A DNA stretch of 64,000 nucleotides from Ignavibacteria bacterium (GTDB lineage: Bacteria; Elusimicrobiota; Endomicrobiia; PHAN01). The notes below the pieces were generated by a model, which saw only the letters and a list, made by a program, of their open reading frames with translations, did no database searches and was not told the origin of the DNA. This document shows positions 13,406-38,165 of the stretch, one piece after another. Every line of letters begins with the position of its first letter. The first letter of the stretch is position 1. Location: the NCBI GenBank assembly GCA_041694835.1, contig JBGFRZ010000082.1, positions 32,001 through 96,000 of the forward strand. Direction: 5' to 3'. Made by a program: the position numbers and the translations under genes.

Positions 13406-13410
13406 TTAAA

Positions 13411-20234: not shown

Positions 20235-21776
20235 TTACGGTATTATCAAAATCTCGCCGGGACGGACAATGCCTTTTTCAATTTTTTCCTTGTTCGCTTC
20301 GTAAATTTTGTTCCATTTATCTTTTGTGCCGTAATACCTCTGCGAAATCGACTGCAACGTTTCTCCGGGAAGCACCTTATGCGTTCTTGCGGCAGGTGGC
20401 GGCGGTGTTCTTTCAGGACGTCTGCGCATCTCCTCGGAAATAACAGACGGACTGGAGACCTCTACATTTAAAATATCGGTAATGTTTTTTTCGGGAGTTT
20501 TTGTAAATTCCGCCGGTGAGGGCGGGGTTGATATTAAAACCGGAATAATCTCTTTTTTCTGGACAGGCGCATAAGTGGATATTTCAGCGGTAAACTCCGT
20601 TAGAAGTAAGTCACCAGAGGCGGCCGGCCCCGATGAATATAGGGGAACTTCTAACGGGATAAATTGTTTTTCTTGCACGAGAGCGGGTTCAGGCGGTGGT
20701 ATCGGCAACTTTCTGTGTTCTTCGAATTTGACGGGATGGAATGTTTCCCGCGTTTTAACGACATCTTTTTTTCTTTCACCGAAATAAACCGAAATACCGA
20801 ACATATGACTCCCCGACATTTCAGACATACCCCCTAAAGGATACAACATCGCATAGTCGAAAGAAATATTTTTAATGTTCATTCCGAGACCCGCTGTAAT
20901 CCTCCTGTAATTATTGCTGCCAAAATTGAACCCTGTCCTCAAAACAAGTACTTCGTTTAACAATTTCTTTTCGACTCCCAAATTGACCGTCTGCCGTTCG
21001 GACGATATTACATAATCGGCGGCAAGCAGAAAATCTTTTTCCTCGTATGACGCTCCGAATACATTTCCGGCCGGTCTCTTGTATTTTTTATTATCTTCGC
21101 TTTCAATCTCCGTGTGATAACCAAATTTTATATTGCCGAACCGCAAAATAACTCCCAATGGAAAAGACATGAAATCTCTGTTATACGGTTCTCTAAATAC
21201 GGGGTCGACTTTTTGATAATTATCTCGTATGGGAATTCTTATCAAATAATTTTTGACGCCAGCGCCGACGAAAACAAAATTATGCGGGTTCCACGAAAAG
21301 TTGAGCGCATAAATTTCTTCAGAATAATAATCACCGAGGGAAAGACCGCTGTAGCCTGCGCCAAAACCGAAATTTCTAAAAGGTATTCCGAAAGAAAAAG
21401 AAGCGTTTGATATATTGCTCCTGTCATCTAGACCAATATGCAGTTTGCTGTAGCCAAACGAGAGAGTCGTATTTCTAAGAGACGAAACGCTCGATGGATT
21501 AAAAAACACAACTCCCGCATCCTCCGTCATAGAAGCCGCTGCCATACCGAGAGAACTTATGCGAGCGAAAGCAGGTTTTTCCTCGAAAGCCGCATAAAGG
21601 CAGACAATAGGCAATAGGCAGTGGGCAATAGTAAAATATAGGCAATAGGCAATAGGCAGTAGGCGGTAGTAGTTGGCGGTTGGCGATTTGTGATATGAAT
21701 AACGAGCCACAAGCCACGAGCCACGAGCCACCAATAAACTTTTAAACTCTTGAACTATCCTCTGTCTTTTATTCAT
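20235..21776 (-). CDS. PorP/SprF- or PorV-like outer-membrane beta-barrel with Pro-rich linker and C-terminal LysM
   Basis: AR..SLG.A......DA...FFNP start, alternating beta strands ending HMFGISVYFG; LysM HKVLPGETLQSISQRYYG...IYEAN...PGEILIIP; start uncertain because of heptamer repeats. Confidence 0.75.
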   Translation of the reverse strand: MNKRQRIVQEFKSLLVARGSWLVARYSYHKSPTANYYRLLPIAYCLYFTIAHCLLPIVCLYAAFEEKPAFARISSLGMAAASMTEDAGVVFFNPSSVSSLRNTTLSFGYSKLHIGLDDRSNISNASFSFGIPFRNFGFGAGYSGLSLGDYYSEEIYALNFSWNPHNFVFVGAGVKNYLIRIPIRDNYQKVDPVFREPYNRDFMSFPLGVILRFGNIKFGYHTEIESEDNKKYKRPAGNVFGASYEEKDFLLAADYVISSERQTVNLGVEKKLLNEVLVLRTGFNFGSNNYRRITAGLGMNIKNISFDYAMLYPLGGMSEMSGSHMFGISVYFGERKKDVVKTRETFHPVKFEEHRKLPIPPPEPALVQEKQFIPLEVPLYSSGPAASGDLLLTEFTAEISTYAPVQKKEIIPVLISTPPSPAEFTKTPEKNITDILNVEVSSPSVISEEMRRRPERTPPPPAARTHKVLPGETLQSISQRYYGTKDKWNKIYEANKEKIEKGIVRPGEILIIP

Positions 21777-24700: not shown

Positions 24701-25433
24701 CATAGACACGCCAGTAGTATGTCGTGTTTTCGTTTAGCGCGGGGGTTGTCCAATTTGTCTGGGTTATATTCTCCACAACGCTTTTTGGCGAAAAATTGCT
24801 TGCGGTTGAATACCAAAGGATGTAACTCGTTATACTGTCGCCGTAGATATTGTCTGTGCCGACAGGAAATCCACCGGCATTTGTCACATCGCCCCATGCC
24901 AGAAAGACCAATGAAGAAAAAACAACTGTTGTCGGGGTTCCTGTGTAGTTGTAGCCACTTACATTCCCAGGTGAGTTGTTCTGAGTCGCCGACTGGGGCT
25001 CAGGACTTGAAGTGTCAAGCAGCGACCAGTTGATGTTGTCCGTCGAAGATTTTATCGCAAAAAAATATGTTATATTATTTACAAGAGATGAAACGACTCT
25101 CATCTCCGAGTTGCTGGAAGAAGTTGAAGTCGAAAATTTTATCCTGTAGGGGTAAGAAATCGATGTGGAGTTGTTTGTCCAGTCGGCTTCTGCGACTATT
25201 ACCCGGTAACTCGAAACTCTTACCTCGTACCATTGAGGCGCTCCTTCCGGCCCACCTGGAGCTGTCCATTGAAGGGTTATGTGTCTGAAGCCGCTTGATC
25301 TTATTGAGAGATCGGTGACCTGATTTGGAACAGCGTTCAGGGTCGTTAATCCAAATAAAAAAAGTATCGTCGGCCAAAAAAAACGAACGGGGCGAAACTT
25401 ATCGATATCCGACAGTTTTGTCCGATGTTTCAT
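21795..25433 (-). CDS. Large secreted Fn3-like repeat protein with gliding-motility/T9SS type-B-like C-terminal domain
   Basis: Signal peptide; about 7-8 repeats of ~100 aa (F.LL.P...PTL.W....DPD...L.EN.TYYW.V.A); C-terminal VFTPNGDGIND...IFD..G...WNG...LPTGVYIY. Confidence 0.8.
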   Translation of the reverse strand: MKHRTKLSDIDKFRPVRFFWPTILFLFGLTTLNAVPNQVTDLSIRSSGFRHITLQWTAPGGPEGAPQWYEVRVSSYRVIVAEADWTNNSTSISYPYRIKFSTSTSSSNSEMRVVSSLVNNITYFFAIKSSTDNINWSLLDTSSPEPQSATQNNSPGNVSGYNYTGTPTTVVFSSLVFLAWGDVTNAGGFPVGTDNIYGDSITSYILWYSTASNFSPKSVVENITQTNWTTPALNENTTYYWRVYARDSEGLLSLGVTGTPQFVVNATSESPTAFSLIQPINDTIETGTLQPTLWWNASSDPDPADFVVYNVYISTSISFESNVSTRVSGINQLSWSPWWNLTENARYFWKVHARDTTGRETVSSSTGSFRLNTVNEPPQPFSLLWPTGGTMIFTSSPTLRWSIAIDLDPGNTVYYGISYSSTTATPAPPVIFDILTTYYQLIDLQEDAVYWWRVVARSSPDNLTTQSEISSFTVKAVNFPPGSFNLLASSGIIRTQTLSLSWQSAIDPDGDTVTYSIFYSSVSNFSIFVSSVGISSPPFSVTTSLNENTTYWWYVIAIDSFNAMTHSSTWFFIVDATSENPKAFSLLSPLDGSFYSYLKPTLLWQETTDPDPYDYVYYYTLTYSTNSLFAIKTQISPIYITSYTFQSDLSNNTTYYWYVTAHSTLTGSTDTLSRSFIAVNLPPNPFVPVSPSGIISTRTPTLIWSPSSDPESDTFWYDVHYSSYENFNVFVSSVGITTTSYITLELKENGTYWWRAVACDIWGNQRWSSVLSFKVNSIEENPSAFSLLSPANGAIIETLMPNFSWSSSFDPDPEDFVVYELWHSTSPDFSSRKVVSNIASLSYQVPLDKTLLVDSTYYWRVYAVDKTSRSTPTTDWSFYTNPSARPLPPTNFKFDIPNTKDIVLSWTAPIKNTDGSSPGNLAGFRVYVAHRFDDLFTSNHVAFVPASSSTLTLALVSDVNIYYMVRAINTLGVLGEPSAVLVAGEPNQNIHHSENGKFQIVAEPEILRPDYSVKITKKENPPDDQKTKLSYMVEIMDREGALIKTGFKKPLTLKFQLENLTASSPAVSKTPSEVASYAVFWFNGVEWVNLGGRYLGAYLIADARYSGEFRVRSLQRAVEFKILNAWPKVFTPNGDGINDEFNVTFENPFSESVTGEIFDLSGYKVAEMEKKSDLWVVWNGKEQSGGALPTGVYIYQLKVGDKIKNGTVVVAR

Positions 25434-25981
25434 ATCTTTATATGTGTGTAATTAAGCCATCTTATGATTTTTGAGAATACGCTCTTTTTCTCATTCCTCA
25501 CAATCTTGAGTGATGTGAGTTTAAGGTTTAATCTTCTTATCTCGTCCTCATACTGCTTGAGAGTATTTTTATGGCCGCTTATTGCGACCGATTGAGTATC
25601 GATAATATCTTCTTTTTTGTGCAGCACAAGCAAGAAATCTTTTCGCCAGTTTGCGAATTCTTTCGCCTGAACGGAAATCTTCGCCAACTCGTTTTTCAGA
25701 GTTTCTATCTCGTCGCGAAGTTTTTCGTTTTCTTCCCTTATGCTGTTTTTCTCATCCTCAAGAAGTTGCATTTTTTGATTGCCATCCTCCGCCATCCGAG
25801 ATAAAATCTCATTCTTTTTGTTTAAATCAGATCTCAGTCTTGTGATTTCGCTCATATACAGATTGTTTTTCTCTCTGAACAAAGATGATTCTGGCATTTC
25901 ACCACGACAACCGAATTCATCCTCGAGGCGCTCTATCTTTTTAAGAAGCTCTGAAACTTTAGTTGCTCTTTGGCTTGCCAT
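25430..25981 (-). CDS. Coiled-coil protein
   Basis: Heptad-rich 183-aa ORF overlapping both neighbours. Confidence 0.7.
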   Translation of the reverse strand: MASQRATKVSELLKKIERLEDEFGCRGEMPESSLFREKNNLYMSEITRLRSDLNKKNEILSRMAEDGNQKMQLLEDEKNSIREENEKLRDEIETLKNELAKISVQAKEFANWRKDFLLVLHKKEDIIDTQSVAISGHKNTLKQYEDEIRRLNLKLTSLKIVRNEKKSVFSKIIRWLNYTHIKI

Positions 25982-28900
25982 CGTTTCTCCTTATCTTGAT
26001 TATGGGTTCGTTCAGGTTTTCCCAGAACTTCTTAAACGACGATGCCTTCTTTCCTTCTGAAAACTCTCCCTCGCCCTCTTTATCGACAAATTTCCTAATC
26101 GCCTTCTTGAGTTCATTTATTTCCTCGTCCTTAATTGAGATTTCAATCTCACGGGCTTTGTATTTTTTTGTTATTTCATCTATAATTTCTTTCAGCTCAA
26201 ATACATCCGAGGTTGCGATTTTGGTCGCTGAATTTTTCAGATTTTCATAAGCGTCCGATATCTCTCTCTTCTGAGATTCCATCTCCTCAATTTTTCCGCG
26301 ATACTCGCTATTTAAAAGCGATATATTTTTCTCGAGGTTCTCCGCTCTCGCTTTTAGTACCGCTCTTTCCTCTTCTTTCGCCTTTAACTCGGAATCTTTC
26401 AAAGACAGTTCTTCCTGTGCGGTCTTTATTGAGTGCTCCATTTCGGCTCTTATTTCACTTAACTCTGAATTCAGGGCGGATTTCATCTGCGATTTTTCTT
26501 TTAAAAGGGTTTCAATCTGATTTCTGTATTTCTCCTCCATCTCCCTTTGAATTTCCAATTCCTTCCGCCTGTAGTCGAGATGAAGCCTCTCGATTTCTCC
26601 CTCTTTCGAAATGATATCGGCTTTAAGTCTGTCTTTTTCATCGTACCACTTTGTGAGCATCTGCTCATAATTTTTTTTAGACTCTTCGACCTCTTTCCTA
26701 AGACGTTCGAACTCAAAGGCATTTTCCATCTCCACTTCCCTTCTCACTTCAAGCTCCATCTGCTTCCATTCGGCATTCATATTTCTTATCTGGTTTTCTT
26801 TTAGAACAATATCCTGTTTGATGTTGTTTGCTTCTTTTTGAGCCGATGAAATCTCCTCTCTGAGTTTAACGGTTTCTATCTGATAGTTCTTCTTCTCTAA
26901 TTCAAGAGAAGTGATTTTTCTTTCAATCTCGCCTTTCTCAATCCTAGAATTATTCAGAATCTCCTGCTCTTTCATCAACTGCTCGGCGAGCTTTCTGTTT
27001 AACTCTTCCTTCTGTCTGGCGAATTCATTTTGGACTTCCCTGATTCTTGCGTCGGCATCTTTTTCTCTGAGTAAAATCGCGTGATTCAGATCGGACACCG
27101 CTTTTCTTGCATGTTCAAGCTCAAAACGAATGTGCTCCGCCTCTTTTGAGAGCGCATTACAGCGCGACTCTTCCTTTGAAAAACTCTCTATCAGACGATG
27201 AATTTCCCCGTTAAGCTCCGATATTTTGCTTTCATATCCGCCGATAGTTTTTGATTTTTCCCTCTCAAATTCTTTTGCAAGGTTTGCGACTTCTCTTTCC
27301 GCATCTCGCTGAATATTTACAACATCATTCCTGAGCGACGTGATTTTGGCCTCACTTTCGCTCGTCAACCTTGATATAGTCTCCTGATAATTCTTTTCAA
27401 TTTCCTTTATCCTGACTTCGGCCTCCCTCTCTTTTAGCTCGATAGCGTGATTGCTCTCCGCTATCTTATGACTTGCGTTATCGAGCTCAAAAGTTATCGA
27501 TGCGATTTTCTGCGAGTATGAATCGTTTTTAGATGATAACTCGACTATATGACTTCTAGAGTCGGTCAGATCTTTCTCCATGATTTTTTTGTCCTGTTCC
27601 AACCGCAAACTCCTCATTTCAAACTCTTTCATTCGCGCCGCGTACTGTTGCATCTGATTTTCATATAAAGAGTCACTTCTCTGTGCGTCCTGTCTCAGGA
27701 TAGAAATTTTCTGCTCATACTCCGCTTCTTTCTGTTCAAGCCTCTGCAACCATTGGGCTTCGGCGATTCCGAGTTGAGCTTCCTTTGAGCTAAGTTTTGA
27801 GTCGTATTCGGCCGAAAGGGTTCTCAATTTTTCTTCGTAATGCCTTTTAATGTTTTCGAGTTCGGTTTCCTTCAAACGGACGGCGCTATTAAAATCTCTT
27901 TCGTGATCGGCGAAATATACCTTCAGAGATTTTATCTCCTCTTCCTTCTTTTGTATCTCAAAACCAGATTCCTGGATTTTTTTGTTAAGCTGTTCCTTGT
28001 AAAATAATATCTCCCTGAGAAGTTTGTCCTGTTCTGTTTTAGTCTTCCCCTGGAAAAGCGCAAACTGCGTCTTCAGGAGAAAATACTCCTTCTCTTTCGC
28101 TTCGGCACATTTGACGAGTTCGTTTTTCTCGGTTCTCATCTTTTCAATAAGATGGACGAGCTTCTCGCCCTTTTCTTTCTGCTCCCTTAATTGAACCGAA
28201 GACATTGCAATCTGCGCCTTTATCGCAAGAAACTCTCTATCTCTTTCTTCAAGTTGTTTCAGGAGAATATTTTTTTCTTCCTGATTTTTTGCGACAGATT
28301 CCTTCAAGTCCCTCAAAGCGGCGTCTCTGTCGGATTCCATCCTTGAAATCCTGTTTTCAAAGTCGTCTTTTTGTTCAAGCAGATTTTTCTCGAATGCAAG
28401 CTTCAGTTTCGAGAGCTCTTCTTCTTTATTTCTCAGAGATGTGGACCATCCAAGTTTTTCTTCGTGCCATTTTCTCTCGAGATCTTTTATCTTCAGGGAA
28501 AACTGTTCTTCAATCTCTGTCTCCTGGAAGTCCCTCTGCTGCATCTGTGTCTTTAACGTCTGAACCCATGTTTCTCTCTCTTGAGAGAGTCTTTCCTCAA
28601 GTTCTTTTATCTTCGATTCGGCTTTCGCTTTCGCTTCCTCTATTTCCTGCTCTCTTTTTTCCCGCCTGAGGCGTTCTTGAATGTCTTTTATAGATTCCTC
28701 GACTTTGGAGGCCATCGCTTCTTCTTCCTTAGACTTCATCATCTGTAAGAGAAGTTTTTCCCTTTCCTGCTGAAGTTGATTCTGAAGTTCTATTATCTGC
28801 TGTTGAAGTTTGGTGGCGGACGCGTCGGAGGCGGGGGTGTCCAAGATGGGCAGATGCTGTGCGGGCGGCTTCAGAGGCAGCCCGGTCCTTTTGGGGAGTA

Positions 28901-29006
28901 CGGGCGAGCCCGAAGATGGTTTCGGGGGCAGCGGTAGATTTGGTTTTCCTCCTGCGTGTTGACCTTTCGATGGCAAAGGCGGAAGTTTGGGTTTTTTATC
29001 TTCCAT
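25959..29006 (-). CDS. Long coiled-coil protein with Pro-rich N-terminus
   Basis: 1015 aa, E/K/Q-rich, almost no Pro after residue ~60, no ATPase motifs. Confidence 0.8.
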   Translation of the reverse strand: MEDKKPKLPPLPSKGQHAGGKPNLPLPPKPSSGSPVLPKRTGLPLKPPAQHLPILDTPASDASATKLQQQIIELQNQLQQEREKLLLQMMKSKEEEAMASKVEESIKDIQERLRREKREQEIEEAKAKAESKIKELEERLSQERETWVQTLKTQMQQRDFQETEIEEQFSLKIKDLERKWHEEKLGWSTSLRNKEEELSKLKLAFEKNLLEQKDDFENRISRMESDRDAALRDLKESVAKNQEEKNILLKQLEERDREFLAIKAQIAMSSVQLREQKEKGEKLVHLIEKMRTEKNELVKCAEAKEKEYFLLKTQFALFQGKTKTEQDKLLREILFYKEQLNKKIQESGFEIQKKEEEIKSLKVYFADHERDFNSAVRLKETELENIKRHYEEKLRTLSAEYDSKLSSKEAQLGIAEAQWLQRLEQKEAEYEQKISILRQDAQRSDSLYENQMQQYAARMKEFEMRSLRLEQDKKIMEKDLTDSRSHIVELSSKNDSYSQKIASITFELDNASHKIAESNHAIELKEREAEVRIKEIEKNYQETISRLTSESEAKITSLRNDVVNIQRDAEREVANLAKEFEREKSKTIGGYESKISELNGEIHRLIESFSKEESRCNALSKEAEHIRFELEHARKAVSDLNHAILLREKDADARIREVQNEFARQKEELNRKLAEQLMKEQEILNNSRIEKGEIERKITSLELEKKNYQIETVKLREEISSAQKEANNIKQDIVLKENQIRNMNAEWKQMELEVRREVEMENAFEFERLRKEVEESKKNYEQMLTKWYDEKDRLKADIISKEGEIERLHLDYRRKELEIQREMEEKYRNQIETLLKEKSQMKSALNSELSEIRAEMEHSIKTAQEELSLKDSELKAKEEERAVLKARAENLEKNISLLNSEYRGKIEEMESQKREISDAYENLKNSATKIATSDVFELKEIIDEITKKYKAREIEISIKDEEINELKKAIRKFVDKEGEGEFSEGKKASSFKKFWENLNEPIIKIRRNDGKPKSN

Positions 29007-32000
29007 TTTTCCCTCCTGATTTGTTATTTATCTTGTTTGTTAATTCCTTCTCAAAGCTAATCAGATTCTCGTTTTTAGGTTCTATGGATATCGCCTTTTT
29101 TATCGCCATAAGAGCGTCATCCAGTTTGTCTGTGTTATAAAAGCATAAGGACATATACTGCTGTGCTTCCGCGCTGGATGGATTATTCCGAGTGAACTCC
29201 CTCAGTATTTCCAAAGACTCGGAGTAACTGCCTTGTTCGCAAAGTTCTACGGCTCTTTTCAAAAGCATCGGTCTGACTTCTTTTGGTGTCTGTCCATAAG
29301 AAACCATCTTTCCCATAAAGTCGTCGGCGAATTTCTTAAGATTTTCCCTCATCTCCCGTCGACGAATGCTTTCTGCCATTATTTCTTTTGTAGTCATTTG
29401 CATACCGGCCTCGAGCACATCGAGTTGATTCATCTTAAGTTCAAGCAGTTTTGTGAATCTATCTTTTTCCGACATTATAGAGTTTTCAAGTTCTGATATT
29501 TCCCGAACCATAGAGATAAGTTCGGTGTTTTTATCCTCATAAAGCTTTAACTGAGCGGATATCTCCGGAGAATCCTTCATATAAGAGGCTCCCGCATCCG
29601 CAAGCTCTTTTCTTAAATTCTCTATGGCTTGAGATGAGAGTTTATGCTGCGACTTATTCTTATCGATTGTCTCTTCCAGAACTCCTTTTAGTTCATCAAT
29701 ATATTTTTGGAGCTCTTCTCCGCGCTTTTTTGTTTCATTTTGCAGACGCTCATTTCTCAACTCAAGTCGTTTTGAGAGGGTGGTTATCTTTTCTTCTTCC
29801 ATATAGATTTTGTTTTTAGACTCTGACAAATAATCGTTGTATTTCCTGAGAAGTTCCGTCAAATCTTTTTCGAGCTTTTTCAAGAGGTTCTTGCTTTTTT
29901 TCTCATGCCTCAATCGCGCAGTCTCGAACTCGGACTTCGAAAGTGCCACTTTGAGTTTTCTGGATTCTATTTCCTTTTCAATCTCTCCGATTATCTTTGC
30001 CGAAGAGTTCTCGCTTTCTTTCAACTTACTTTCCCAAAGATTCACTTCGGCGAGGAGCGTTTCTCTCTCTTTAAGAAGCTTCGCTTCCTGAAGGACCCAT
30101 TCGGATTCGAGGCGATTTTTTTCATCGTCATATTTTGCCTCTAGTTCTCTTTGCGTTTTTATTTTCCCGGAAATCGTTTCCCCGGTTTCCTTCTTTAACT
30201 TTTCCATTTCAGACGACAACTTTTCCATCTCTCGCTCGATCTTTTCTTTCTCGGCGAGGTGTTCTTTCGTTATTCGTTGCTCTTCGTCGGTCACATAGGA
30301 TTCCCATGTTGTTATTTTGTTTCCGAGCTCTTTCATCTCTTCTTCTTTTTGCGATTTTAAATTGCTCCAGTAATCGCCTTGCTCTCTGATAGTCTTTTGA
30401 AGAGTTGATATCTGCTCTTCAAGTCTTTTATTCGTATCAGTCCAGGTTGTCTCTTTATTCTTTAGTTCATTTTTTGTCTGTTCAAGAGATGCCTGTGATT
30501 TATTGATGAACGCATTCAGCTCGCTCGTCTTGGAGCAAAGCGCGGTTTTGCCCGCATTCTGAACTTCCAAAAAGTTGTTTTGGAGCATCGTCAGTTCTTC
30601 GGCCAGAACTTTTCTCTCGTTTTCATAATTTTCGTTTTGCTTTTTTTCCTCCTCGTGCCATGATTTTTCTCTTAAAGCCATCTGCGTCTTCAGGACATAA
30701 AGTTGCCTGTCCAGAATCCTTACTTCATCGCGATTCGTTCCGACTAGAGCTTTTAGCTTATGTTCTAACTCATCCCTCTTCCTATCAAGCGAATGTTTCT
30801 CGGCGGCATAATTCTGTGATGAGTTTTCAAACTTTGTTTTCATTTCATCTTCCAATACTTTTAGATTCTGCTGTCCAACTTTCAGTTTTTCTTCAACTTC
30901 GGATAACTCTTGCTCCTGCTTGATTTTTATGGCTTTCATCTGGTTTTCAAGATTTTCTTTCCTTTTTTCAATTCTTTTGACGAACTGCTCATGCGATTGA
31001 AAATATGAATCTCTATTTTTTGTGTAATTATCCTCCTGTTCCTTCAATTTCGCATTTAGTTCCTGAATCTGCTGCTGCCTTGTGGCAACCATCCCCGGAT
31101 GTTTTTCTTCCAACTGCGCAAGTTCCATTTCATTCGATGTAATTTTGGAAATCAGCAGTTCTTTGACTTTATTAAACTCGCTTTCCATATGATTCAACCT
31201 GGCTTTATACTCCTGTTCAAACCTCAAGTGGTCCGACTTAAGCTTTTCAATTTCACGCTTTTTCTCCGCCAGCAACTCCGCATGGCGGGATTTCATCTCT
31301 TCCGATTCATTTTCAATCTTTTCTATTTCCTCATTTATGAGCTTTTTTTCATTTTCATTTTCTAACTCAAGAATTTTTATTTCTTTTTCATATTTGTGAA
31401 TGTTGGTTTCACGAGATGCGTTTAAAAAAGTTATCTTGTTATCGAACTCTATTAAGATATCAGCATGTTTTTTTCTTGTTTCATCAAGTTTTTTTGAAGA
31501 TTCTTCGAGTTTTTTTCTGACCAACTCAAGCTCCGCGCTTATTATGCTCTCCTTTTCTTCTATCTCATATTTATTTGCCGAAATTAAATCATTCACTTTT
31601 TTACTTATCGCTTGTATATGTCTTTCGGACTCCGAAATTTCACTTTCGCATTTTTCTTTAAAAAAATTAAACCCGACTTTCGTCCTTTCAAGCGACTCTA
31701 TCGCTATCTTCTTCTTGCCTTCAAGTTCAAAGCGGGTGGCGTCCAAATTTTTTTGTAACACCGCTGTCTTTTCCAAAAGAACTTTTTCTAACTGATTGTT
31801 CTCATCGTTTTTCGCGCTTACGGTCTCATCAAATCTCTTTTGTTCTGAAATCACCACACTATTCAATTCCTCTATTTTAGCCTCAATACTTCCTTTTTCT
31901 TCTTTTAGTTTTACATTAAAACTTTCAAGCGCAAGAGAATGATTTTTCTTTTCATCTTCCATCTTTTGCATCAAAGACTGATGGACATTTTCAAGTTCCT

Positions 32001-33846
32001 TCATGTTTTTTGAATGTTCTTTTTCAAGCGATATTTTTTGAGAGTCAATCTCGTCTATGTCGGCCTTTATTGAATCGATTTCGGCCGAGAGTTTATCGAC
32101 TGACTGATGGTATCTACTTTCAAGCATATTTTCCTGATGGGCAAAACGTTGCTTCAAACTTAAATAATCTCTTTCCTTTTCTGCCATCTTCTGCTTAAAA
32201 TCCATCTCAAGACGCGCTTTTTTACTTTCAGCGACCTTCAGCTTTTCTTTATAAGGTTCAACTTCCACAAAAAGTTTCTTTTTAGCGTTCTCAAAAGACC
32301 TGGTGCTTTCCAAAAGTTCCGCTTCCACTGAATTTTTTGCGGCTTCAACCTGGGATTTCTTTTGAGAAAGAAGTGAAGAGTACTCCGTCTTTATTTTCGA
32401 AAAATCTTCCTGGAACTTTTGATATTTATCCTCGATGAGTTTTTTCTCCTCGGAAAGAATTTCAATTTGATGTTTATGTTGAAGATTCTTCTGTTCCTGG
32501 TTCGATTGCCAATCGTTTTTGAACTTTTCCATCTCTTCGTACTTTCCGGAGAGTTCACTTTGATATTCTATTTTCTGGTTCAAAACTTCTTTTTCAAGAT
32601 CAGTACATCTCAAAGAGATTCTCTTTTTTTCATTTTCAATATTTGTTTTGTATTTTTCTATTTCTGCGTTTTTCTCCCTTATCTTTATTTGAGCCTGGAT
32701 TTTAATGTCTTCTATATCCTGATCCGCGACTCTTATCATATTCTCCCATTCGGATTTTTCCTGCTCATATTTCTGATGAAGCTCCTTGAGCTGTTTTTCA
32801 GCCAGAGATTTTGCCTCTTTGAACTCGTTGAAACGTTTTTCGCGAGCGGAACTTTCCTGCGTTTCCTGAAGCATCATGTCAATTTTTAGTTTATTGAAAG
32901 CATCTTCCCTCTCTTTCAATAGTTTCTCGTATTTCTCCTTTTCGGAAAGCGACTCCCTTTCCATCTCACTCATCTGAGCCACTAACTTTTCTTTTAAATC
33001 CTTAAGCAATATCTTTTTCGCATTCAGTTCCTGCTCATATATTATCTGACGCTGTTTCAAAGCCGAGCTGAATGCAAGCAATCCCTCTTTTTTATCGTTA
33101 TAAATTTTCTGGAAGTTTGCTCTCATTTCGGAAAGATTTTTTTCAACACCATTCAACTGATTATTGTAATTGCCTTCTAATTCTTTTTTCTCCCGATGAA
33201 ATTTTTCCTCTTCCTGCCGGGACTGGTTGACTCTGAGGGATATCTGTGCTTTTAATGCCACGATTTCCTCTTCCCTGCCTTTCAGTCTTGTTACAAATTC
33301 CCCTATTTCCTGCTGTGCTTTTTTCTCGAAGGCAAGAAGCTGACTTTCTATCTCTCTTAATTCCTGAGTGGATGAAATTATCTCTTTTTCATCTTCGGCT
33401 TTTTTTTCGTTTTCCCTGGTTTGCAAATTTACTTTTGTTTCGTCTATCTCGGTTATGATAGCTCTGATTTTTTGACCCCACTCTTTATCCTCTTCTTCTA
33501 TCTTGCGCTCAACCCTTTGCAGTTCGTCATTCCATTTTTTTCTAAGCGAATTTATCGAGTCCTGATGAAGTTGCATGTTGTTTGAAAGTTCGAGTTCAAC
33601 AAGTTCAAGATGGATGGAAAGTTTTATTTTTTCATCTTCTTTCTCTTTTTCTTTCTTCCTGTAATTTTCCCGCTCAACTTCGAGCATCTTTTCTATGTTT
33701 TCAAGTTGCTCACGCGCCGTTTTTTTTATGCTTTGTAAATCATGGCTGGCGGTAAGCTCTATCTTTTTCTCGTCGCACTCAATATCCGATGTCGCTTTTT
33801 TTTCGGCGACTGGTTCCTCTTTGTGTTTGATTAGCCACTTCCACAT
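28996..33846 (-). CDS. Giant coiled-coil protein with 61-residue periodicity and C-terminal TPR
   Basis: 1616 aa; 61-aa register counted by hand; C-terminal TPR (AVELCEQGSYSES...NPSSAEAQQYM...AISIEPKN); GGAGG upstream of the start. Confidence 0.85.
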   Translation of the reverse strand: MWKWLIKHKEEPVAEKKATSDIECDEKKIELTASHDLQSIKKTAREQLENIEKMLEVERENYRKKEKEKEDEKIKLSIHLELVELELSNNMQLHQDSINSLRKKWNDELQRVERKIEEEDKEWGQKIRAIITEIDETKVNLQTRENEKKAEDEKEIISSTQELREIESQLLAFEKKAQQEIGEFVTRLKGREEEIVALKAQISLRVNQSRQEEEKFHREKKELEGNYNNQLNGVEKNLSEMRANFQKIYNDKKEGLLAFSSALKQRQIIYEQELNAKKILLKDLKEKLVAQMSEMERESLSEKEKYEKLLKEREDAFNKLKIDMMLQETQESSAREKRFNEFKEAKSLAEKQLKELHQKYEQEKSEWENMIRVADQDIEDIKIQAQIKIREKNAEIEKYKTNIENEKKRISLRCTDLEKEVLNQKIEYQSELSGKYEEMEKFKNDWQSNQEQKNLQHKHQIEILSEEKKLIEDKYQKFQEDFSKIKTEYSSLLSQKKSQVEAAKNSVEAELLESTRSFENAKKKLFVEVEPYKEKLKVAESKKARLEMDFKQKMAEKERDYLSLKQRFAHQENMLESRYHQSVDKLSAEIDSIKADIDEIDSQKISLEKEHSKNMKELENVHQSLMQKMEDEKKNHSLALESFNVKLKEEKGSIEAKIEELNSVVISEQKRFDETVSAKNDENNQLEKVLLEKTAVLQKNLDATRFELEGKKKIAIESLERTKVGFNFFKEKCESEISESERHIQAISKKVNDLISANKYEIEEKESIISAELELVRKKLEESSKKLDETRKKHADILIEFDNKITFLNASRETNIHKYEKEIKILELENENEKKLINEEIEKIENESEEMKSRHAELLAEKKREIEKLKSDHLRFEQEYKARLNHMESEFNKVKELLISKITSNEMELAQLEEKHPGMVATRQQQIQELNAKLKEQEDNYTKNRDSYFQSHEQFVKRIEKRKENLENQMKAIKIKQEQELSEVEEKLKVGQQNLKVLEDEMKTKFENSSQNYAAEKHSLDRKRDELEHKLKALVGTNRDEVRILDRQLYVLKTQMALREKSWHEEEKKQNENYENERKVLAEELTMLQNNFLEVQNAGKTALCSKTSELNAFINKSQASLEQTKNELKNKETTWTDTNKRLEEQISTLQKTIREQGDYWSNLKSQKEEEMKELGNKITTWESYVTDEEQRITKEHLAEKEKIEREMEKLSSEMEKLKKETGETISGKIKTQRELEAKYDDEKNRLESEWVLQEAKLLKERETLLAEVNLWESKLKESENSSAKIIGEIEKEIESRKLKVALSKSEFETARLRHEKKSKNLLKKLEKDLTELLRKYNDYLSESKNKIYMEEEKITTLSKRLELRNERLQNETKKRGEELQKYIDELKGVLEETIDKNKSQHKLSSQAIENLRKELADAGASYMKDSPEISAQLKLYEDKNTELISMVREISELENSIMSEKDRFTKLLELKMNQLDVLEAGMQMTTKEIMAESIRRREMRENLKKFADDFMGKMVSYGQTPKEVRPMLLKRAVELCEQGSYSESLEILREFTRNNPSSAEAQQYMSLCFYNTDKLDDALMAIKKAISIEPKNENLISFEKELTNKINNKSGGKNGR

Positions 33847-33861
33847 ATTATTCCTCCGCTT

Positions 33862-35676
33862 TTATTTTCTTGATGCCTCGAGTTTTATCTGTTCAATAAA
33901 GTTTGACAGCTCCGTGTCATTTGGGTTTATGTTTAACACCGCTTCATAATTTGCAATCGCTTCGTCATATCTTCCGAGAGCATAATATGAAGCGGCAATA
34001 TAACTGTAGGCGTCGGTCAAAGTGTTGTCGATTGAAAGGACGTACTCAAGATAGCTTATGGCATCCTCATAGTTTCCCGCTTCATAACTGGAGAGTCCTG
34101 CCTGATAGTAATCCGCAGCGTCACCTTCCGAAGGAGCGGCTTCTTCGTCAACAACCTCTTCACCCTCAAGAGCGCTGCTTTTCGGCTTTTCTCTTATAAA
34201 GATTTTACCGTCATCTTCAAGTTTTCTTATGACATCCATTATTTTCTTTCTTCCTTCTTCTGTCTGTAACGGCGTTACGGATTGGGTGTACTGCATTTCT
34301 TCTTGAATAAGTTGGACCGCGTTAGACGACATGTTGGCAAAAAACTTATTTACCACATCCTGAGGCACTCCTTTGAGTGAGCGGGCAAGAAGTTCCGAAT
34401 TTTTCAAATCTGGAAAGTTAAGTATTGTCTGCATCGTCTGATCCGTGAAGTTCTTAATGTCATCAAACTTCAATATAAACTTTCTGACCCTGTCGTAGAG
34501 TTCCGGTTTTTCGTTCTGTAGATAATCCAGTATGTTGTCCCTTGTTACGTTGTCAACCTGATCAAGCACTTTCAAAAGATGCTCTATGCCGCCTATTAGG
34601 AAGTCTATCTTTTCTTTTATGTCGTCGTCTATCTTCATTACCTTATCCCTCGTCATCTGTCTTATGGTCGCCATCTCTATGGCCACCTGCGACTGAACCT
34701 GCGCCGAAAGGCTGAGAAGTATCTCTTTGACATGCTCGGGTTTAAGATAACTTATTACGAGAGCTATTATTCTTGCGCTTTCTTTCCTTATTAAATATAT
34801 AAGTCTTTTAAGATTTTCGTCATCTACATAGTGAAACGGTTTGTACTTTTTTTTCTCCTCTTCCAGCGCTTCAAGCTCAGCCGCAGAAAGAGCGCCGCCT
34901 CCGCCTCCTCCTTCACCGCCTTCTGGCTCCCCCTCGGGGTTTTCGAATTTTGAATCCACGGTAACTTCTGTTCCGCCCTTTTCCCTCATCGTTTTTACAT
35001 ATGCACGGAAAAAGCCAGCAAGAGGACCGAAAAGAAAAAATAAAAGAAGAAATGCTATAACAAGAGGTATCAAAACAAGCGGCTTCAGCAGCTCTTCAAA
35101 AAATCCCGTCGTGAATTTTGTTTTCTTAAAATCTATCCGGTCACCGCGCTTTTGATCTATTCTGAGAGCGGAAGTAATAGCATCTTTTACGGCTTCAAGT
35201 TTCGACTCGGGAACTTTTTCATCGTGCAAAACAGTCACTATCTGTTTTTTCAGAGCAATTTTGACCTCGACAGTTATTTTTTCCTGCTGGCCGGCCTCTT
35301 CTTTCGATTCGCCGACTTGATCCGCTTGAGAAACCGCTCTGGGCGCCGGAACACCCGGCAGCAGATACTCCACCTCGCCTATCGGCTTCTTTTTTTCGGC
35401 CTTTCTTTCCCTGACGAAGGTTTTTCTGGTTATCGTATCAAGACCGAATTCGACATCGACTATGGCTATCGCTTTATCCGGTCCAAGTATCCTGTCAAGG
35501 ATGTCTTTCTGAACGTACTCCGTCTTTTCTTTTTCGTACTTGAGTTCATGTTCTATCAGTGAGATTTCCGCAGACTGCGGGGTCATCTGTCCATAAAGAT
35601 AAACAAAAGAAGAAAGAGCCAGTAAAAGTGCCACCGCGCTTTGTTTCAAATTTTTAAGCTGTTTTAATTTTTTCAT
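33862..35676 (-). CDS. FliF C-terminal ring-domain / TM / FliG middle+C-terminal / TPR fusion protein
   Basis: Signal peptide; ILDRILGPDKAIAIVDVEF and VTVLHD...ITSALRIDQKRGDRIDF (FliF RBM3-like); one TM; IALVISYL, GGIE, PELYDRVR, LARSLKG, FFANMS and IRKLEDDGKI (FliG-like); two TPRs. Confidence 0.8.
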   Translation of the reverse strand: MKKLKQLKNLKQSAVALLLALSSFVYLYGQMTPQSAEISLIEHELKYEKEKTEYVQKDILDRILGPDKAIAIVDVEFGLDTITRKTFVRERKAEKKKPIGEVEYLLPGVPAPRAVSQADQVGESKEEAGQQEKITVEVKIALKKQIVTVLHDEKVPESKLEAVKDAITSALRIDQKRGDRIDFKKTKFTTGFFEELLKPLVLIPLVIAFLLLFFLFGPLAGFFRAYVKTMREKGGTEVTVDSKFENPEGEPEGGEGGGGGGALSAAELEALEEEKKKYKPFHYVDDENLKRLIYLIRKESARIIALVISYLKPEHVKEILLSLSAQVQSQVAIEMATIRQMTRDKVMKIDDDIKEKIDFLIGGIEHLLKVLDQVDNVTRDNILDYLQNEKPELYDRVRKFILKFDDIKNFTDQTMQTILNFPDLKNSELLARSLKGVPQDVVNKFFANMSSNAVQLIQEEMQYTQSVTPLQTEEGRKKIMDVIRKLEDDGKIFIREKPKSSALEGEEVVDEEAAPSEGDAADYYQAGLSSYEAGNYEDAISYLEYVLSIDNTLTDAYSYIAASYYALGRYDEAIANYEAVLNINPNDTELSNFIEQIKLEASRK

Positions 35677-35687
35677 ATATTTACCCT

Positions 35688-37322
35688 TTATCTAAGTTGG
35701 TTCAGGAACTGCGGAACCACTCTGTTTGTTGGATCTATTTCGAGCACCCGCATCCAGACCTCTTTTGCTTTTTCCGGCTGATCCATCATAAAGAAAGCGC
35801 TTCCCATAATTTCGTAAGCTGTCACATGGTTCGGTTCAAGATTCAGCACTTCCTGGGCTTTAATAAGGGCTTTGTCATATTTGCCGTCTATTATGGCTTG
35901 TCTTGCGTCGAAGATCTTCTGATCTATTATAGTAAATCCTGCGATTGTTTCCTTGAATGCTTCCGTAGGCGGGATGCCCATTTCTTTTTCAATCCTGTTC
36001 AACAAAGCAAGTAGCTTCATGTTCTCGGGTTTTTTGTAATAAGCATATCTGAAAGAGTTTATGGCGCCCGTGTCGTCGCCTTCTATATATGCTACAATCC
36101 CTTTTCTTGTCGCTACGGCATCTTCAGTATCTCCTACCACAGTGTCTATGTGACCTATTATTACCTGTAGTTTTTTGGACATATTCTGTGCATCTTTATT
36201 GGCCGGGTCTATATCAAGAAGTTTTTCAAGTCGATTGTGGGAAAGAAGCATGTCTCCTTTTCTGTAGGATTCTATAGCTTCTTTCATAAGACGCACCACT
36301 ATAGCCGCTCTGTTAGCGCTTACCGATTCCCCTATTTTCCACGAACCGGATATTCTATGTGAAAGTCCGAGCTCATGCAAAGCAAACGCATAATCAAGCC
36401 CGTAATCTTTATATTTGAAACCAAAACCAGCGGTTGTCTCTCTTATTCTACCTTCGCCCTCGAATCCGAGACGCATGGCAAGATAATTCATAAGCCAGTA
36501 TTCTGTCCCTATGTGCCAGCCGAGATTTGCGTTAAGCGATTTTTCAATATCAAACGCCAGTAAAAACTTTTTTTTCATAAACGGATGGGCCGCGCCGACT
36601 CTGAATATCATAGGAAGTTTGTCTTCCGTATCGCCAAAGCTCGTAGAAATTATGTTCCTGACACCGAAAGCAATTTTTATATCGGGCAACGTGTCATTTA
36701 CTCCTTCAAGGAGCAGCGCAAGATCGAATGTTAGGGCTCCGCTTATAGAATCGGCCAGAGCATGGTTCATGTACTTCCCAGAAAGACCTATGGAGAGATT
36801 TTCTCTTATTCTTCTGCCGTATGCTGCCATTAAAGCCAGACGGGAATCTTCAAATGTGCCTAAATTTTCAATCTTAACTATGTCCTGTGTAGTTGGGTCT
36901 ATGTTTATCGCTATTTTTTCAAAACCGCCCGAGTGGAGACGGACGATGTTTGCTCCGAAAACTCCCAACTTTGCGGTTGGATGCACATACGACAGAAAGT
37001 TATAGTTGGTATCGGCAAAAAGCGTGGCATGGAGAGCCATAACTTCTTTCCTGTCAAGCTGGGTCAGAGCTGCCGGATTCCAGTAAGTAGCGGAGGCATC
37101 GTCGGAAACCGCGAAAAACGCTTTTCCCATACCAAGTGATTTAGCGCCAGCACCCCATGAAAGGAACTGCCCAGGCTGGCCGCCGGTGGCAGCGGCAAAG
37201 ACAGAGGATAGCGGCGAGAGACAAGAGACGAGAGAACAAATAAAAACAAAAGCCATCCCTGACAAAGTTTTTGCGACTTTGTTCGCTAGTTTTGTCGAGA
37301 GTTTTGTTTTTGAATTTTTCAT
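35688..37322 (-). CDS. PorV/PorQ-like (FadL-type) outer-membrane barrel with C-terminal TPRs
   Basis: FLSWGAGAKSLGMGKAFFAVSDDASATYWNPAAL, LPMIFRVG, GTEYW and LDYAF...HRIS motifs; several TPRs. Confidence 0.8.
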   Translation of the reverse strand: MKNSKTKLSTKLANKVAKTLSGMAFVFICSLVSCLSPLSSVFAAATGGQPGQFLSWGAGAKSLGMGKAFFAVSDDASATYWNPAALTQLDRKEVMALHATLFADTNYNFLSYVHPTAKLGVFGANIVRLHSGGFEKIAINIDPTTQDIVKIENLGTFEDSRLALMAAYGRRIRENLSIGLSGKYMNHALADSISGALTFDLALLLEGVNDTLPDIKIAFGVRNIISTSFGDTEDKLPMIFRVGAAHPFMKKKFLLAFDIEKSLNANLGWHIGTEYWLMNYLAMRLGFEGEGRIRETTAGFGFKYKDYGLDYAFALHELGLSHRISGSWKIGESVSANRAAIVVRLMKEAIESYRKGDMLLSHNRLEKLLDIDPANKDAQNMSKKLQVIIGHIDTVVGDTEDAVATRKGIVAYIEGDDTGAINSFRYAYYKKPENMKLLALLNRIEKEMGIPPTEAFKETIAGFTIIDQKIFDARQAIIDGKYDKALIKAQEVLNLEPNHVTAYEIMGSAFFMMDQPEKAKEVWMRVLEIDPTNRVVPQFLNQLR

Positions 37323-37358: not shown

Positions 37359-37727
37359 TTAATGTATGACTCCAATTTTTCTTAAAGCCACTATCTTCCC
37401 GCCATCGACGGAAACCACACAGATATATCCGCCCTTGGCGACGTAATGACCGTTTTCGTCGCGACCGTCCCACAGGATTGTATCTCCAAAAAATTCGAGA
37501 TGCTTGACGGGGCGGCCAAAAAGATCGAAAATTTTTACCGCAATTCCAACGTCGGTCTGATTTGATTTTTTTACAAGGATGCTTGTGGAAGTTTTTCTCG
37601 AATCGAACGGATTGGGATAGTTTGAAAGAAATATGTCAGAAGATGATGCGACGGATGCCGTCAACAAAAGAATTGATGAGGCGAAAGGGATAAGTAAAAG
37701 ATAATTTAAAAAGTTGATGTGCTTCAT
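37359..37727 (-). CDS. Small secreted protein consisting of one T9SS-CTD / FlgD-Ig-like domain
   Basis: Signal peptide, then NYPNPF...KIFDLFGRPVK...WDGRDENG..V..GGY. Confidence 0.75.
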   Translation of the reverse strand: MKHINFLNYLLLIPFASSILLLTASVASSSDIFLSNYPNPFDSRKTSTSILVKKSNQTDVGIAVKIFDLFGRPVKHLEFFGDTILWDGRDENGHYVAKGGYICVVSVDGGKIVALRKIGVIH

Positions 37728-37734
37728 AAATTGC

Positions 37735-37873
37735 CTTCGGTAACCCGGCCGCCATAATCTCGCATTTTGCTTGATGTTAGGCCCGTATCCTGACCTATAG
37801 TCAGAATGACCCGATTCAACATCGGGATCGGCTTTGCGTCCTCCGGTTTCCCGGAGTTTGCCATTTATCGGAC
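37735..37873 (-). ncRNA. Cyclic di-GMP-I (GEMM) riboswitch, downstream copy
   Basis: GATAAATGGCAAAC-TCCGG-GAAA-CCGGA-GGACGCAAAGCC...GGGCCTAA...TATGGCGGCCGGGTTACCGAA, ending about 8 nt before the start codon. Confidence 0.85.
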
Positions 37874-37953: not shown

Positions 37954-38030
37954 AAAGATAGGGGGTCCTAAAACTTGTTGCAAACCACTACAACCGCAAC
38001 CGCTAACAAATTAAACTTACTACACCTTCT

Positions 38031-38165
38031 CTCGGTAGCCCGGCCAGCTCCCCCGACATTATGTCGGGGGCATCGCTCCGATTTCCCGAAACGATTTTGA
38101 TAGCCCCCTATCTTTAGCTCCGCGGCTTTGCGTCCTCCGGTTTCCCGAAGTTTGCCTTTATCGCA
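38031..38165 (-). ncRNA. Cyclic di-GMP-I (GEMM) riboswitch, upstream copy
   Basis: GATAAAGGCAAAC-TTCGG-GAAA-CCGGA-GGACGCAAAGCCGCGGAGCTAAA...GCTGGCCGGGCTACCGA. Confidence 0.82.

Follow-up and report, generated by a model that had tools for sequence, protein, structure and literature searches.

Introduction

What does a single protein that joins parts of FliF and FliG do outside the flagellum? This question is raised by a gene at 33862..35676 on the (-) strand of the window, by which we mean the whole stretch of 64,000 nucleotides that was analysed. The gene encodes a protein of 604 aa (P0001), and the source genome belongs to the Elusimicrobiota and is 97% complete. A previous sequence-only reading had described the product as a natural fusion of the FliF RBM3 domain, one transmembrane (TM) helix, the middle and C-terminal domains of FliG and a TPR domain; it had proposed a self-contained ring without a switch complex, which would be either turned by stators of another family or used as a static scaffold. 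In this work, we have analysed the architecture of the fusion, the conservation of its motifs, its operon, its stator candidates and its distribution. According to our results, these organisms seem to have turned parts of the flagellar motor to a different cell-surface job.

Domain architecture of the fusion protein

The fusion gene was defined by its open reading frame, Pfam matches and structure, and all of its segments, like every other feature for which coordinates are given below, lie on the (-) strand. The chain begins with a basic and hydrophobic segment (aa 1-30; 35587..35676), recognised in the sequence and modelled as a helix at residues 8-27, which may be a signal peptide or, alternatively, a first membrane anchor like that of FliF. 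It continues with a periplasmic FliF RBM3 and beta-collar domain (aa 34-189; 35110..35577), identified by Pfam, structure and profile, a TM helix (about aa 199-222; 35011..35082; hydropathy 2.81, also present in the AF2 model) and a Gly/Glu linker that was read from the sequence at aa 236-262. On the cytoplasmic side, the FliG middle domain (aa ~278-360; 34597..34845) was delimited by Pfam, the alignment to 1lkv and the family columns, and the FliG C-terminal, or torque, domain (aa 385-494; 34195..34524) and the C-terminal TPR domain (aa 516-604; 33865..34131) by Pfam, alignment and structure.

The FliG identity of the helical, armadillo-type region is well supported. Pfam FliG_C matches aa 385-494 (E 2.2e-24) and FliG_M aa 291-357 (E 3.9e-13), TPR families cover aa 516-600, and the FliG of T. 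maritima (1lkv) aligns to the fusion with an E-value of 2.7e-30; the whole-protein FliG equivalog TIGR00207 is not reached (115.6 bits against a cut-off of 226.7). In the AF2 model (pLDDT 83), residues 272-494 match FliG 8wiw_3 with Z 16.9 over 220 aligned positions, and the FliG_C domain matches 1qc7_B (Z 15.4, rmsd 1.1) and 8ucs_H (Z 14.7). The sequence-only reading had named a better match to MgtE-N as the observation that would speak against FliG, and none was seen.

For the periplasmic domain, the Pfam family YscJ_FliF_C covers aa 60-188 with 23.6 bits (E 7.6e-5), just under the cut-off of 23.8, and the family profile matches FliF chains only, with a best E-value of just 0.0015. The structural evidence is stronger: residues 34-189 match the FliF MS-ring 8z5v_A with Z 13.5, and a model of the domain alone, compared with the full set of 48,161 PDB representatives, gave no more than three chains with Z>=8, all of them FliF RBM3/collar (8z5v_A, Z 13.1; 6scn_A, Z 12.1, rmsd 2.0 over 102 residues; 8z4d_1, Z 11.4). 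The next matches were PrgK (Z 7.8) and SpoIIIAG (Z 7.2). The domain also contains a KRGD motif and a conserved LPGVPxP loop in which P107 and P110 are invariant. FliF itself forms rings of about 33-34 subunits; for the fusion, a prediction of four copies of aa 34-192 in complex gave no usable answer (score 0.01), a result that is neutral on ring formation.

Several parts of the flagellar proteins are absent, as had been proposed from the sequence for RBM1/2 and FliG-N. The structural match to FliF begins at about residue 255 and that to FliG at about residue 96-106. No match to PF01514 (YscJ_FliF) exists genome-wide and the periplasmic part has only ~165 aa, so RBM1 and RBM2 are missing, and the FliG_N domain is missing as well, given that the Pfam FliG_N match overlies the middle domain (304-387). 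The FliF C-terminal peptide is also lacking; the fusion joins FliF and FliG covalently, in place of the joint between FliF-C and FliG-N.

Conservation of the torque and FliM-site motifs

The motif changes noted from the sequence (ESAR, ILKF, MSSN and QSVT, with the GG hinge and the acidic EE kept) are all real when compared with 1lkv, in which the corresponding motifs are EHPQ, MFVF, MSKR and GPVR; in addition, KDE reads QEE. It is important to note that these changes are family-wide and not a private decay of this gene, whose reading frame is intact and which has more than 100 full-length orthologs. In 100 family sequences, the GG hinge (aa 362-363 of the fusion), K444 and E459 are invariant, and the second residue of the torque-helix acidic pair, E460, is found in 76. 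The charged positions of the torque helix are R281/D288/D289/R297 in the numbering of E. coli FliG, and the two Arg positions are non-basic in the fusion. The equivalent of R281 is G, N or S, with Arg in none of the 100 sequences, and that of R297 is mostly Thr (77/100), with K in 4/100 and Arg outside the four commonest residues. In the columns of EHPQ, part of the EHPQR motif by which FliG binds FliM, the first position is E in 89/100 and the third is P in 84/100, while the second and fourth are variable.

On the stator side, all 16 MotA sequences have K or R at the position of R90. At that of E98 they vary between E (7) and Q (5), a drift that matches the absence of the partner Arg from FliG, and MotB retains its channel Asp.

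A conserved operon headed by c-di-GMP riboswitches

The fusion gene is part of a conserved, riboswitch-headed operon of tightly coupled genes, which encodes a PorV-like barrel with a TPR tail, the fusion and giant cytoplasmic coiled coils; the description of the ring as self-contained was thus too strong. Upstream of the operon there are two c-di-GMP riboswitch aptamers in tandem, one of the c-di-GMP-I-GGC type (38030..38165; 60 bits, cut-off 59) and one of the c-di-GMP-I type (37736..37872; 45.2 bits, cut-off 35), and riboswitches were found upstream in all five other loci scanned. The first gene (37359..37727) encodes a protein of 122 aa that consists almost entirely of a T9SS-type C-terminal sorting domain (TIGR04183, 21.9 bits, just below the cut-off of 23). 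The second (35688..37322) encodes an outer-membrane barrel of the PorV/PorQ family with a C-terminal TPR tail (NF033709, 140.5 bits, cut-off 90); it stops 11 nt before the start of the fusion, and the two genes adjoin in 21 of the 23 loci.

Downstream, the stop codon of the fusion is directly followed by a GGAGG site and the start codon of a gene for a coiled-coil protein of 1616 aa (28996..33846), which has a C-terminal TPR and neither a signal peptide nor a TM helix. Next come a cytoplasmic coiled-coil protein of 1015 aa with a Pro-rich N-terminal motif (25959..29006), characterised from sequence and hydropathy, and a coiled-coil protein of 183 aa (25430..25981), characterised by Pfam search and hydropathy; the cytoplasmic placing of the coiled-coil proteins, that is, their lack of a signal peptide or TM helix, comes from a crude hydropathy scan. 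In other classes of the phylum, a gene of the 1015-aa type lies between the fusion and flbD-motAB.

A surface protein of 1212 aa with Fn3/Ig domains (21795..25433) carries a type-B T9SS sorting domain (CHU_C, 45.1 bits; TIGR04131, 34.6 bits, cut-off 35), and it is followed by a PorP/SprF-like barrel with a LysM domain (20235..21776), for which both family matches fall under their cut-offs and whose reading frame probably runs through a dispersed repeat at its 5' end. The sorting-domain part of the PorU model matched at 19 places in the genome, and only this end of the model was matched; its catalytic part had no match genome-wide. The search of the genome for GldM gave no match, and the control genomes gave no signal either. 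For SprA, the search gave only four weak pieces in one frame of 1713 aa, below cut-off.

Genome context and the FlbD-MotA-MotB stator

Searches of the whole genome for FlhA, FliM, FliN, rod proteins, flagellin and the FliF N-terminal domain found none of them, although every one of these searches matched all four flagellated control genomes. The absence of a switch complex that had been proposed for the fusion therefore agrees with the genome. FlhA is rare in the phylum (5/201 genomes searched), and it is present in only 2 of the 68 genomes that bear the fusion.

Our study identified a flagellar-type flbD-motA-motB operon in the same genome, on contig C54 and apart from the fusion operon. Its FlbD (E 8e-26) is encoded just upstream of MotA, which matches the flagellar MotA of C. 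sporogenes with an E-value of 8.5e-59, and its MotB has plug and OmpA domains. At 10 of the 11 loci that belong to other classes, a MotA of this type (49-56% identical) is encoded 0.5-5 kb downstream of a TPR-type fusion, in the same operon, and FlbD was confirmed by Pfam at both of the two such loci tested. Within the class of the source genome, flbD-motAB is linked to the fusion operon in none of eight loci of 20 kb, so the pairing of fusion and stator in the source genome rests on orthology with the other classes. A second type of fusion, a paralog without TPR, is directly followed by motA-motB-motB, and for 66 of the 90 paralog-tier matches a MotA is encoded no more than 2 kb away.

The phyletic comparison with MotA, suggested earlier as a check, points in the same direction. 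The fusion was found in 68 of 201 genomes of the phylum, and 67 of these 68 also carry a MotA of the same type, counts that come from related genomes and are hence not independent. Its frequency is 66/78 outside two large families and 1/122 inside them, and carrier genomes have up to five matches to the fusion family, with about two in most of them.

We also considered the Zorya anti-phage system, which was rejected: among the PADLOC models, those of ZorB were matched by MotB proteins only, and no model matched MotA, the fusion or the coiled-coil proteins of 1616 and 1015 aa. The 183-aa coiled-coil protein had two weak PADLOC matches, both to non-Zorya models.

Distribution of the fusion family

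A genome scan with alignment A1 recovered 92 relatives, of which 80 were kept, all from MAGs. Most of those kept are titled as Elusimicrobiota-type lineages and a few simply as "bacterium", and word-index searches with both paralog types returned Elusimicrobiota only. One relative is labelled Nitrospirota, and the source of another, P0239 (847 aa), annotates it as a histidine kinase/FliG fusion. Among look-alike clusters in the ESM Atlas, the commonest phyla are Cloacimonadota, Bdellovibrionota, Bacteroidota and Thermodesulfobacteriota.

Proposed function and alternative explanations

We consider it probable that the fusion is the inner-membrane ring (rotor) subunit of an Elusimicrobiota-specific, non-flagellar envelope machine derived from the flagellar torque core, and we infer that this machine would rotate, be driven by MotAB and handle surface proteins. 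In the mechanism that we propose, the periplasmic domains of the fusion would assemble into a putative S-ring-like ring, while peptidoglycan-anchored MotA5B2 units would push the FliG_C domains. Torque contact would be made through that half of the canonical charge pairs which is still present, that is, the basic residue of MotA against the acidic pair of FliG, and the scaffold role of FliM and FliN may have been taken over by the cytoplasmic TPR domain of the fusion and the coiled-coil proteins. The PorV-like barrel, a candidate carrier of surface proteins with T9SS-type sorting domains, would be coupled to the periplasmic ring by its TPR tail. When c-di-GMP permits, the motor might in this way export, anchor or move giant adhesins, possibly the basis of gliding. 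Against a rotor count the loss of both canonical arginines of the torque helix, the degenerate FliM-site motif, the separation of the stator genes from the operon in the organism's own class and, without a rod, the lack of any known periplasmic torque acceptor.

The same arguments favour a static scaffold, that is, a fixed inner-membrane platform that places the PorV-like barrel, the coiled coils and the surface proteins, with FliG as a docking module and MotAB serving something else. Such a platform would fit the loss of both arginines and the altered EHPQ and MFxF motifs, the fact that neither a rod nor another torque acceptor was found in the genome, and the stator genes being unlinked from the operon in the organism's own class. 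However, flbD-motAB shares the operon in 10/11 other-class loci, MotA adjoins 66/90 paralog matches and accompanies the fusion in 67/68 genomes, and the acidic pair of FliG, the basic residue of MotA, the Asp of MotB and the GG hinge are conserved; we therefore regard a purely static role as unlikely. For these reasons, and with a flagellar-type flbD-motA-motB in the genome itself, the earlier suggestion of stators of another family or a static scaffold finds no support in our data.

The contact between rotor and stator might instead inform the cell about load or ion flow, with no mechanical work done on surface proteins. The c-di-GMP control of the operon and the name given to P0239, a histidine kinase/FliG fusion, would agree with such signalling, but the fusion itself carries no signalling domain and its conserved partners are structural (an outer-membrane barrel, coiled coils and sorting-domain cargo), which makes this explanation quite improbable. 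That the gene is a functionless, decaying remnant of a lost flagellum could be argued from its altered classical motifs and the missing rest of the flagellar gene set. Nevertheless, the intact frame with more than 100 full-length orthologs, the invariance of functionally important columns, the presence of about two and up to five matches per carrier genome and the conservation of the operon and its riboswitches across classes are hard to reconcile with decay, and we have rejected the relic on the grounds of its column, operon and riboswitch conservation as highly improbable. Finally, the likelihood that the helical region is an Mg2+-sensing domain of the MgtE-N type is negligible: the two folds are related and PF03448 (MgtE_N) appears in the precomputed Pfam annotation of many homologs, but the fusion itself has no PF03448 match at E<=0.01, matches FliG by sequence (E 2.7e-30) and structure (Z 15-17), has no MgtE membrane domain, its sole internal membrane segment being the one helix at about aa 199-217, and is linked to MotAB.

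Extending the rotor interpretation, free-living Elusimicrobiota might possess a second flagellar-rotor-based machine, in which a FliF/FliG ring turned by FlbD-MotAB drives PorV-like carriers and giant adhesins and not a rod and filament; this would be a new c-di-GMP-switched, ion-driven secretion or gliding engine, a proposal that we make tentatively and hold to be somewhat doubtful in its full extent. The same machine could be the motility apparatus of the flagellum-less magnetotactic Elusimicrobiota, and it offers a concrete motility candidate for a phylum in which flagella are rare. If a conserved rotor-stator core truly exists without export apparatus, rod, hook, filament or switch, the flagellar torque generator could work as a stand-alone module, and the fusion would be a natural minimal system for studies of the interface between MS-ring, FliG and MotAB; it also bears on the assembly of the flagellum from, or its reduction to, simpler parts. 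Likewise, the link to PorV barrels and adhesins, if true, would add a further way of energising type-IX-like surface display.

Comparison with known systems

With the flagellar rotor-stator core, the system shares the FliF RBM3/collar and, on the FliG side, the middle and C-terminal domains with the GG hinge and the acidic torque-helix pair. The stator genes are alike too: MotA is of the flagellar type, MotB retains its plug, channel Asp and OmpA domain, and an flbD gene stands just upstream of motA (FlbD is the SwrD of Bacillus). In contrast, the flagellar core is made of two chains and has RBM1/2, FliG_N and the FliF C-terminal peptide, whereas the fusion lacks the torque arginines, has a degenerate EHPQ and carries an added TPR tail. 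In place of FliM, FliN, FlhA, rod and flagellin, which were not found, it is accompanied by a PorV-like barrel, giant coiled coils and sorting-domain proteins. All FliF/FliG rotors characterised so far are, to our knowledge, flagellar.

A similar general plan is known from the Agl-Glt gliding system of Myxococcus, in which a large coiled-coil protein of the cytoplasm, barrels in the outer membrane and a surface adhesin cooperate with a motor of the MotAB/TolQR type. The likeness in motor, coiled coil, barrels and adhesin is one of description, and we know of no FliF or FliG ring in that system.

Among engineered proteins, FliF-FliG fusions of Salmonella and Vibrio are reported to assemble rings (PMC6079021, PMC10941966, PMC11481574). 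They are single chains like the Elusimicrobiota fusion, but they are full-length and work in flagella; the protein described here is natural, trimmed to RBM3 and FliG M/C, extended by TPR and encoded outside flagellar gene sets. The literature searched, with subscription journals and supplements outside its scope, yielded no account of FliF and FliG naturally fused outside flagella, and the available portions of a paper on MotAB evolution and of a preprint on the ancestral flagellum held nothing on Elusimicrobiota for the terms searched. The only relevant text found was a preprint (10.1101/2022.07.08.499144) whose available text describes orphan motAB, flbD and fliG in free-living, flagellum-less Elusimicrobiota; its authors call the role of these genes unclear and raise the possibility of gliding or twitching. 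Genes and phylum are those of the present study, and that portion of the text mentions neither a fusion with FliF nor the TPR, the riboswitches or the operon with PorV and coiled coils.

The T9SS and gliding machinery of Bacteroidota (GldLM/PorLM, PorV, and PorP/SprF with type-B sorting-domain adhesins), as described in PMC8986121 and PMC9143113, resembles the present system in having an ion-driven inner-membrane motor that is genetically tied to a barrel of the PorV family. The likeness extends to the PorP/SprF-like barrel, which adjoins cargo with a type-B sorting domain, and to the many sorting-domain proteins of the genome. The difference lies in the motor, which here would consist of MotAB and a FliF/FliG ring in place of GldLM.

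The fusion protein and its domains

The gene at positions 33862-35676 is a single minus-strand open reading frame that fills this interval and encodes a protein of 604 amino acids (P0001). It starts 11 nt past the stop of the upstream gene, with AGGG just 5' of the start, and past its stop come GGAGG and the start of the next gene. Pfam models place YscJ_FliF_C at residues 60-188 (E 7.6e-5; 23.6 bits, just below the 23.8 cut-off), FliG_M at 291-357 (E 3.9e-13), FliG_C at 385-494 (E 2.2e-24) and several TPR families at 516-600. P0001 is thus FliG-like, yet it is not a FliG by the equivalog rule, because the corresponding model requires 226.7 bits and the score is 115.6.

For the structural analysis, an AF2 model of P0001 (mean pLDDT 83.3, pTM 0.43) was built from an alignment of 100 full-length homologs, with eight short or fragmentary matches excluded. 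Foldseek searches of this model against the PDB returned FliG M-C structures on top (1lkv, E 1.7e-10) and FliF S-ring chains in second rank (8z5v_A, E 6.9e-5; 6sd1_A, E 3.2e-4). A second structural aligner matched residues 272-494 to FliG of the CW C-ring (Z 16.9), the C-domain alone to FliG (Z 15.4, rmsd 1.1) and residues 34-189 to Vibrio FliF 256-452 (Z 13.5); the FliG piece solved with the MotAB stator (8ucs_H) gave Z 14.7. Since helical parts dominated the whole-model match list, the periplasmic domain was modelled separately (86-row alignment, pLDDT 71) and compared with all 48,161 PDB representatives. Only three chains reached Z>=8, all of them FliF RBM3/collar (13.1, 12.1 and 11.4), followed by PrgK and EscJ (7.8-7.5) and SpoIIIAG (7.2); the profile of the same alignment retrieved FliF chains only, weakly (best E 0.0015), from the PDB. 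The sequence-only reading had staked its FliF RBM3 assignment (residues ~40-185) and its FliG assignment (residues ~280-495) on matches of this kind; both are present, and therefore both assignments survive.

Alignment to T. maritima FliG also bears out the motif changes listed in that reading (EHPQ to ESAR, MFVF to ILKF, MSKR to MSSN and GPVR to QSVT), together with the retained GG and acidic pair. Column counts over 100 orthologs establish the altered motifs as family traits. In the two torque-helix columns that we take to be equivalent to E. coli R281 and R297, the first holds G in 55, N in 40, S in 5 and Arg in none, and the second mostly Thr (77). The FliM-site motif columns read E (89), variable, P (84), variable; no ortholog departs from E459, K444 or the GG pair, and position 460 is Glu in 76.

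Flagellar genes and stators in the genome

The source assembly measures 1.9 Mb. Searches for FHIPEP, FliMN_C, the rod motif, YscJ_FliF, Flagellin_N and FliM found no match in this 97.2%-complete genome, and four flagellated controls matched each of them. The second FliG_C gene of the genome, on contig C81, has the P0001 architecture without TPR and is 32% identical to P0001 across the FliG part. The genes before it encode a surface protein of 2278 aa and a barrel with TPR; those after it are motA and two copies of motB. The first of these motB genes has the channel Asp, as in a sister genome; the second (12911-13615 of the fetched C81 stretch L003) has Asn at this site (YGNMMT), likewise in the sister genome (L025 11541-12284). 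This operon is interspersed with two small genes (L003 7080-7433 and 10753-11136) from the '23S rRNA intervening sequence protein' family, one of which also matches bAvd-like, under the model cut-off.

The third locus, flbD-motA-motB, is on contig C54: FlbD is recognised at E 8e-26, MotA matches the flagellar MotA of Clostridium sporogenes at E 8.5e-59, and MotB has both the plug and the OmpA domain. A tRNA gene (6359-6431 of stretch L036) separates these three genes from an upstream secreted-protein gene, so the putatively displaced stator operon begins right after a tRNA. PADLOC returned nothing except MotB resembling ZorB.

Operon, riboswitches and surface proteins

The operon of P0001 is headed by two c-di-GMP-I riboswitch aptamers. 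The same class precedes the barrel or mini-CTD gene in all five other loci with TPR-bearing orthologs (TPR-type) that were scanned, and the riboswitch scan found none at the C81 or C54 loci. Directly upstream of P0001 lies a PorV/PorQ-family barrel with a TPR tail (140.5 bits, cut-off 90). Downstream are three coiled-coil proteins, in which a simple hydropathy scan found no signal peptide or TM segment, then an Fn3 protein of 1212 aa, which carries a type-B sorting domain, and a PorP/SprF-like barrel with matches under the cut-offs. The 1015-aa coiled-coil family (25959-29006; orthologs in L017-L035) has a Pro-rich KLPPLP-like start in 13/16 rows and, by regex, a W..L..P-hydrophobic ending in 8/16; the 1616-aa family (28996-33846; same stretches) carries a C-terminal TPR resembling that of the fusion in 5/9 rows. 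These elements are candidate docking sites for the TPR domains.

The sorting-domain end of the PorU model has 19 matches in the genome, its catalytic part none. The SprA (T9SS translocon) model gives four weak sub-cut-off matches in one 1713-aa frame (contig C72, 16471-19437); GldM has no match in the genome, and the control genomes were equally without signal. A dispersed repeat of ~60-140 nt (59 blastn matches, 45 inspected) lies at 21592-21733, at C81 9196-9345 and on many other contigs. It falls inside the called 5' ends of the PorP/SprF-like gene and of the C81 paralog, which share the peptide 'ARGSWLVAR...LLPIAYCL'; the long N-termini of both are therefore probably over-extensions through an intergenic element.

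The probable stator of P0001

We compared the ORFs of 20-kb stretches around orthologs from other genomes with the genes of the window, which yielded 23 distinct TPR-type loci. The PorV-like barrel-TPR gene is directly upstream of the fusion in 21 of them; one exception has no adjoining barrel-TPR gene and the other is cut by the end of the stretch. Eleven loci from other classes of the phylum share the order barrel-TPR, fusion, a single coiled-coil gene (1015-aa type), an ORF of 72-80 aa (FlbD in 2/2 tested loci), motA and motB. Their motA is of the C54 type (49-56% identical) and lies 0.5-5 kb downstream of the fusion in ten and 15 kb off in one. No motA was found in the window or in the 20-kb span of eight loci from its own class. 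Because a C54-type motA follows the orthologous fusion in other classes, we infer by orthology that the C54 operon is the displaced cognate stator of P0001. By phylum-genome coordinates, MotA lies within 10 kb of 20/51 top-tier (TPR-type) matches and within 2 kb of 66/90 lower-tier (paralog) matches, the tiers being assigned by rank in the phylum-wide fusion search.

In the classical E. coli pairing, the FliG acidic pair meets MotA R90 and the FliG arginine meets MotA E98. In the MotA columns presumably equivalent to these residues, the first is K or R in 16/16 sequences from the loci analysed, and the second, in the C54 type, is E in seven and Q in five. This mirrors FliG, in which the acidic pair facing R90 is retained and the arginine facing E98 lost. 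C54-type MotB has its channel Asp. Such a residue pattern is what would be expected of a working, simplified rotor-stator contact rather than of a relic.

Distribution in the phylum

The fusion was identified in 68 of 201 phylum genomes and in 50 of 76 genera: 66/78 genomes outside two large families versus 1/122 inside. The MotA query was positive in 73 genomes and FlhA in five; 67 fusion carriers have MotA and two have FlhA, and six genomes have MotA without the fusion, three of them with FlhA, all counts being descriptive, since the genomes are related. Family f24, the sole family with FlhA in most members (3/4: G062, G104 and G170), has MotA and no fusion (0/4); the FlhA-positive G119 and G064 have both. 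All named homologs and the 80 species-genome loci are MAGs, mostly labelled Elusimicrobia, Elusimicrobiota, Endomicrobiia or Endomicrobiales, a few just 'bacterium', and existing annotations read 'FliG C-terminal domain-containing', 'TPR repeat' or 'hypothetical'. The metagenomic P0239 (847 aa), named 'signal transduction histidine kinase/flagellar motor switch protein FliG' at its source, looks like a kinase-rotor fusion because its C-terminal part matches P0001 residues 13-520.

Proposed mechanism and relation to known systems

Starting from the observed domain identities, missing flagellum, stator genes and riboswitch-headed operon, we propose that the RBM3/collar domains would assemble an S-ring-like ring, that peptidoglycan-anchored MotA5B2 units would act upon the FliG_C domains, and that the TPR of the fusion and the coiled-coil proteins would take over from FliM/FliN in the cytoplasm. 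In the periplasm, the collar may touch the TPR tail of the PorV-like barrel, which would hold sorting-domain cargo. The most conserved periplasmic motif, LPGVPxP, lies at the collar tip (P107 and P110 invariant in the 100-homolog alignment); the TPR-less type conserves it as well. The ring may turn, and giant adhesins might be exported, anchored or moved as the output.

Our literature search found no paper on the FliF-FliG-TPR fusion or its operon. In a preprint (10.1101/2022.07.08.499144), free-living Elusimicrobiota without flagellar structural genes are described as holding many motAB, flbD and fliG homologs, whose role is called unclear, with gliding or twitching suggested. Among known systems, laboratory FliF-FliG fusions are described as forming rings (PMC6079021, PMC10941966 and PMC11481574).
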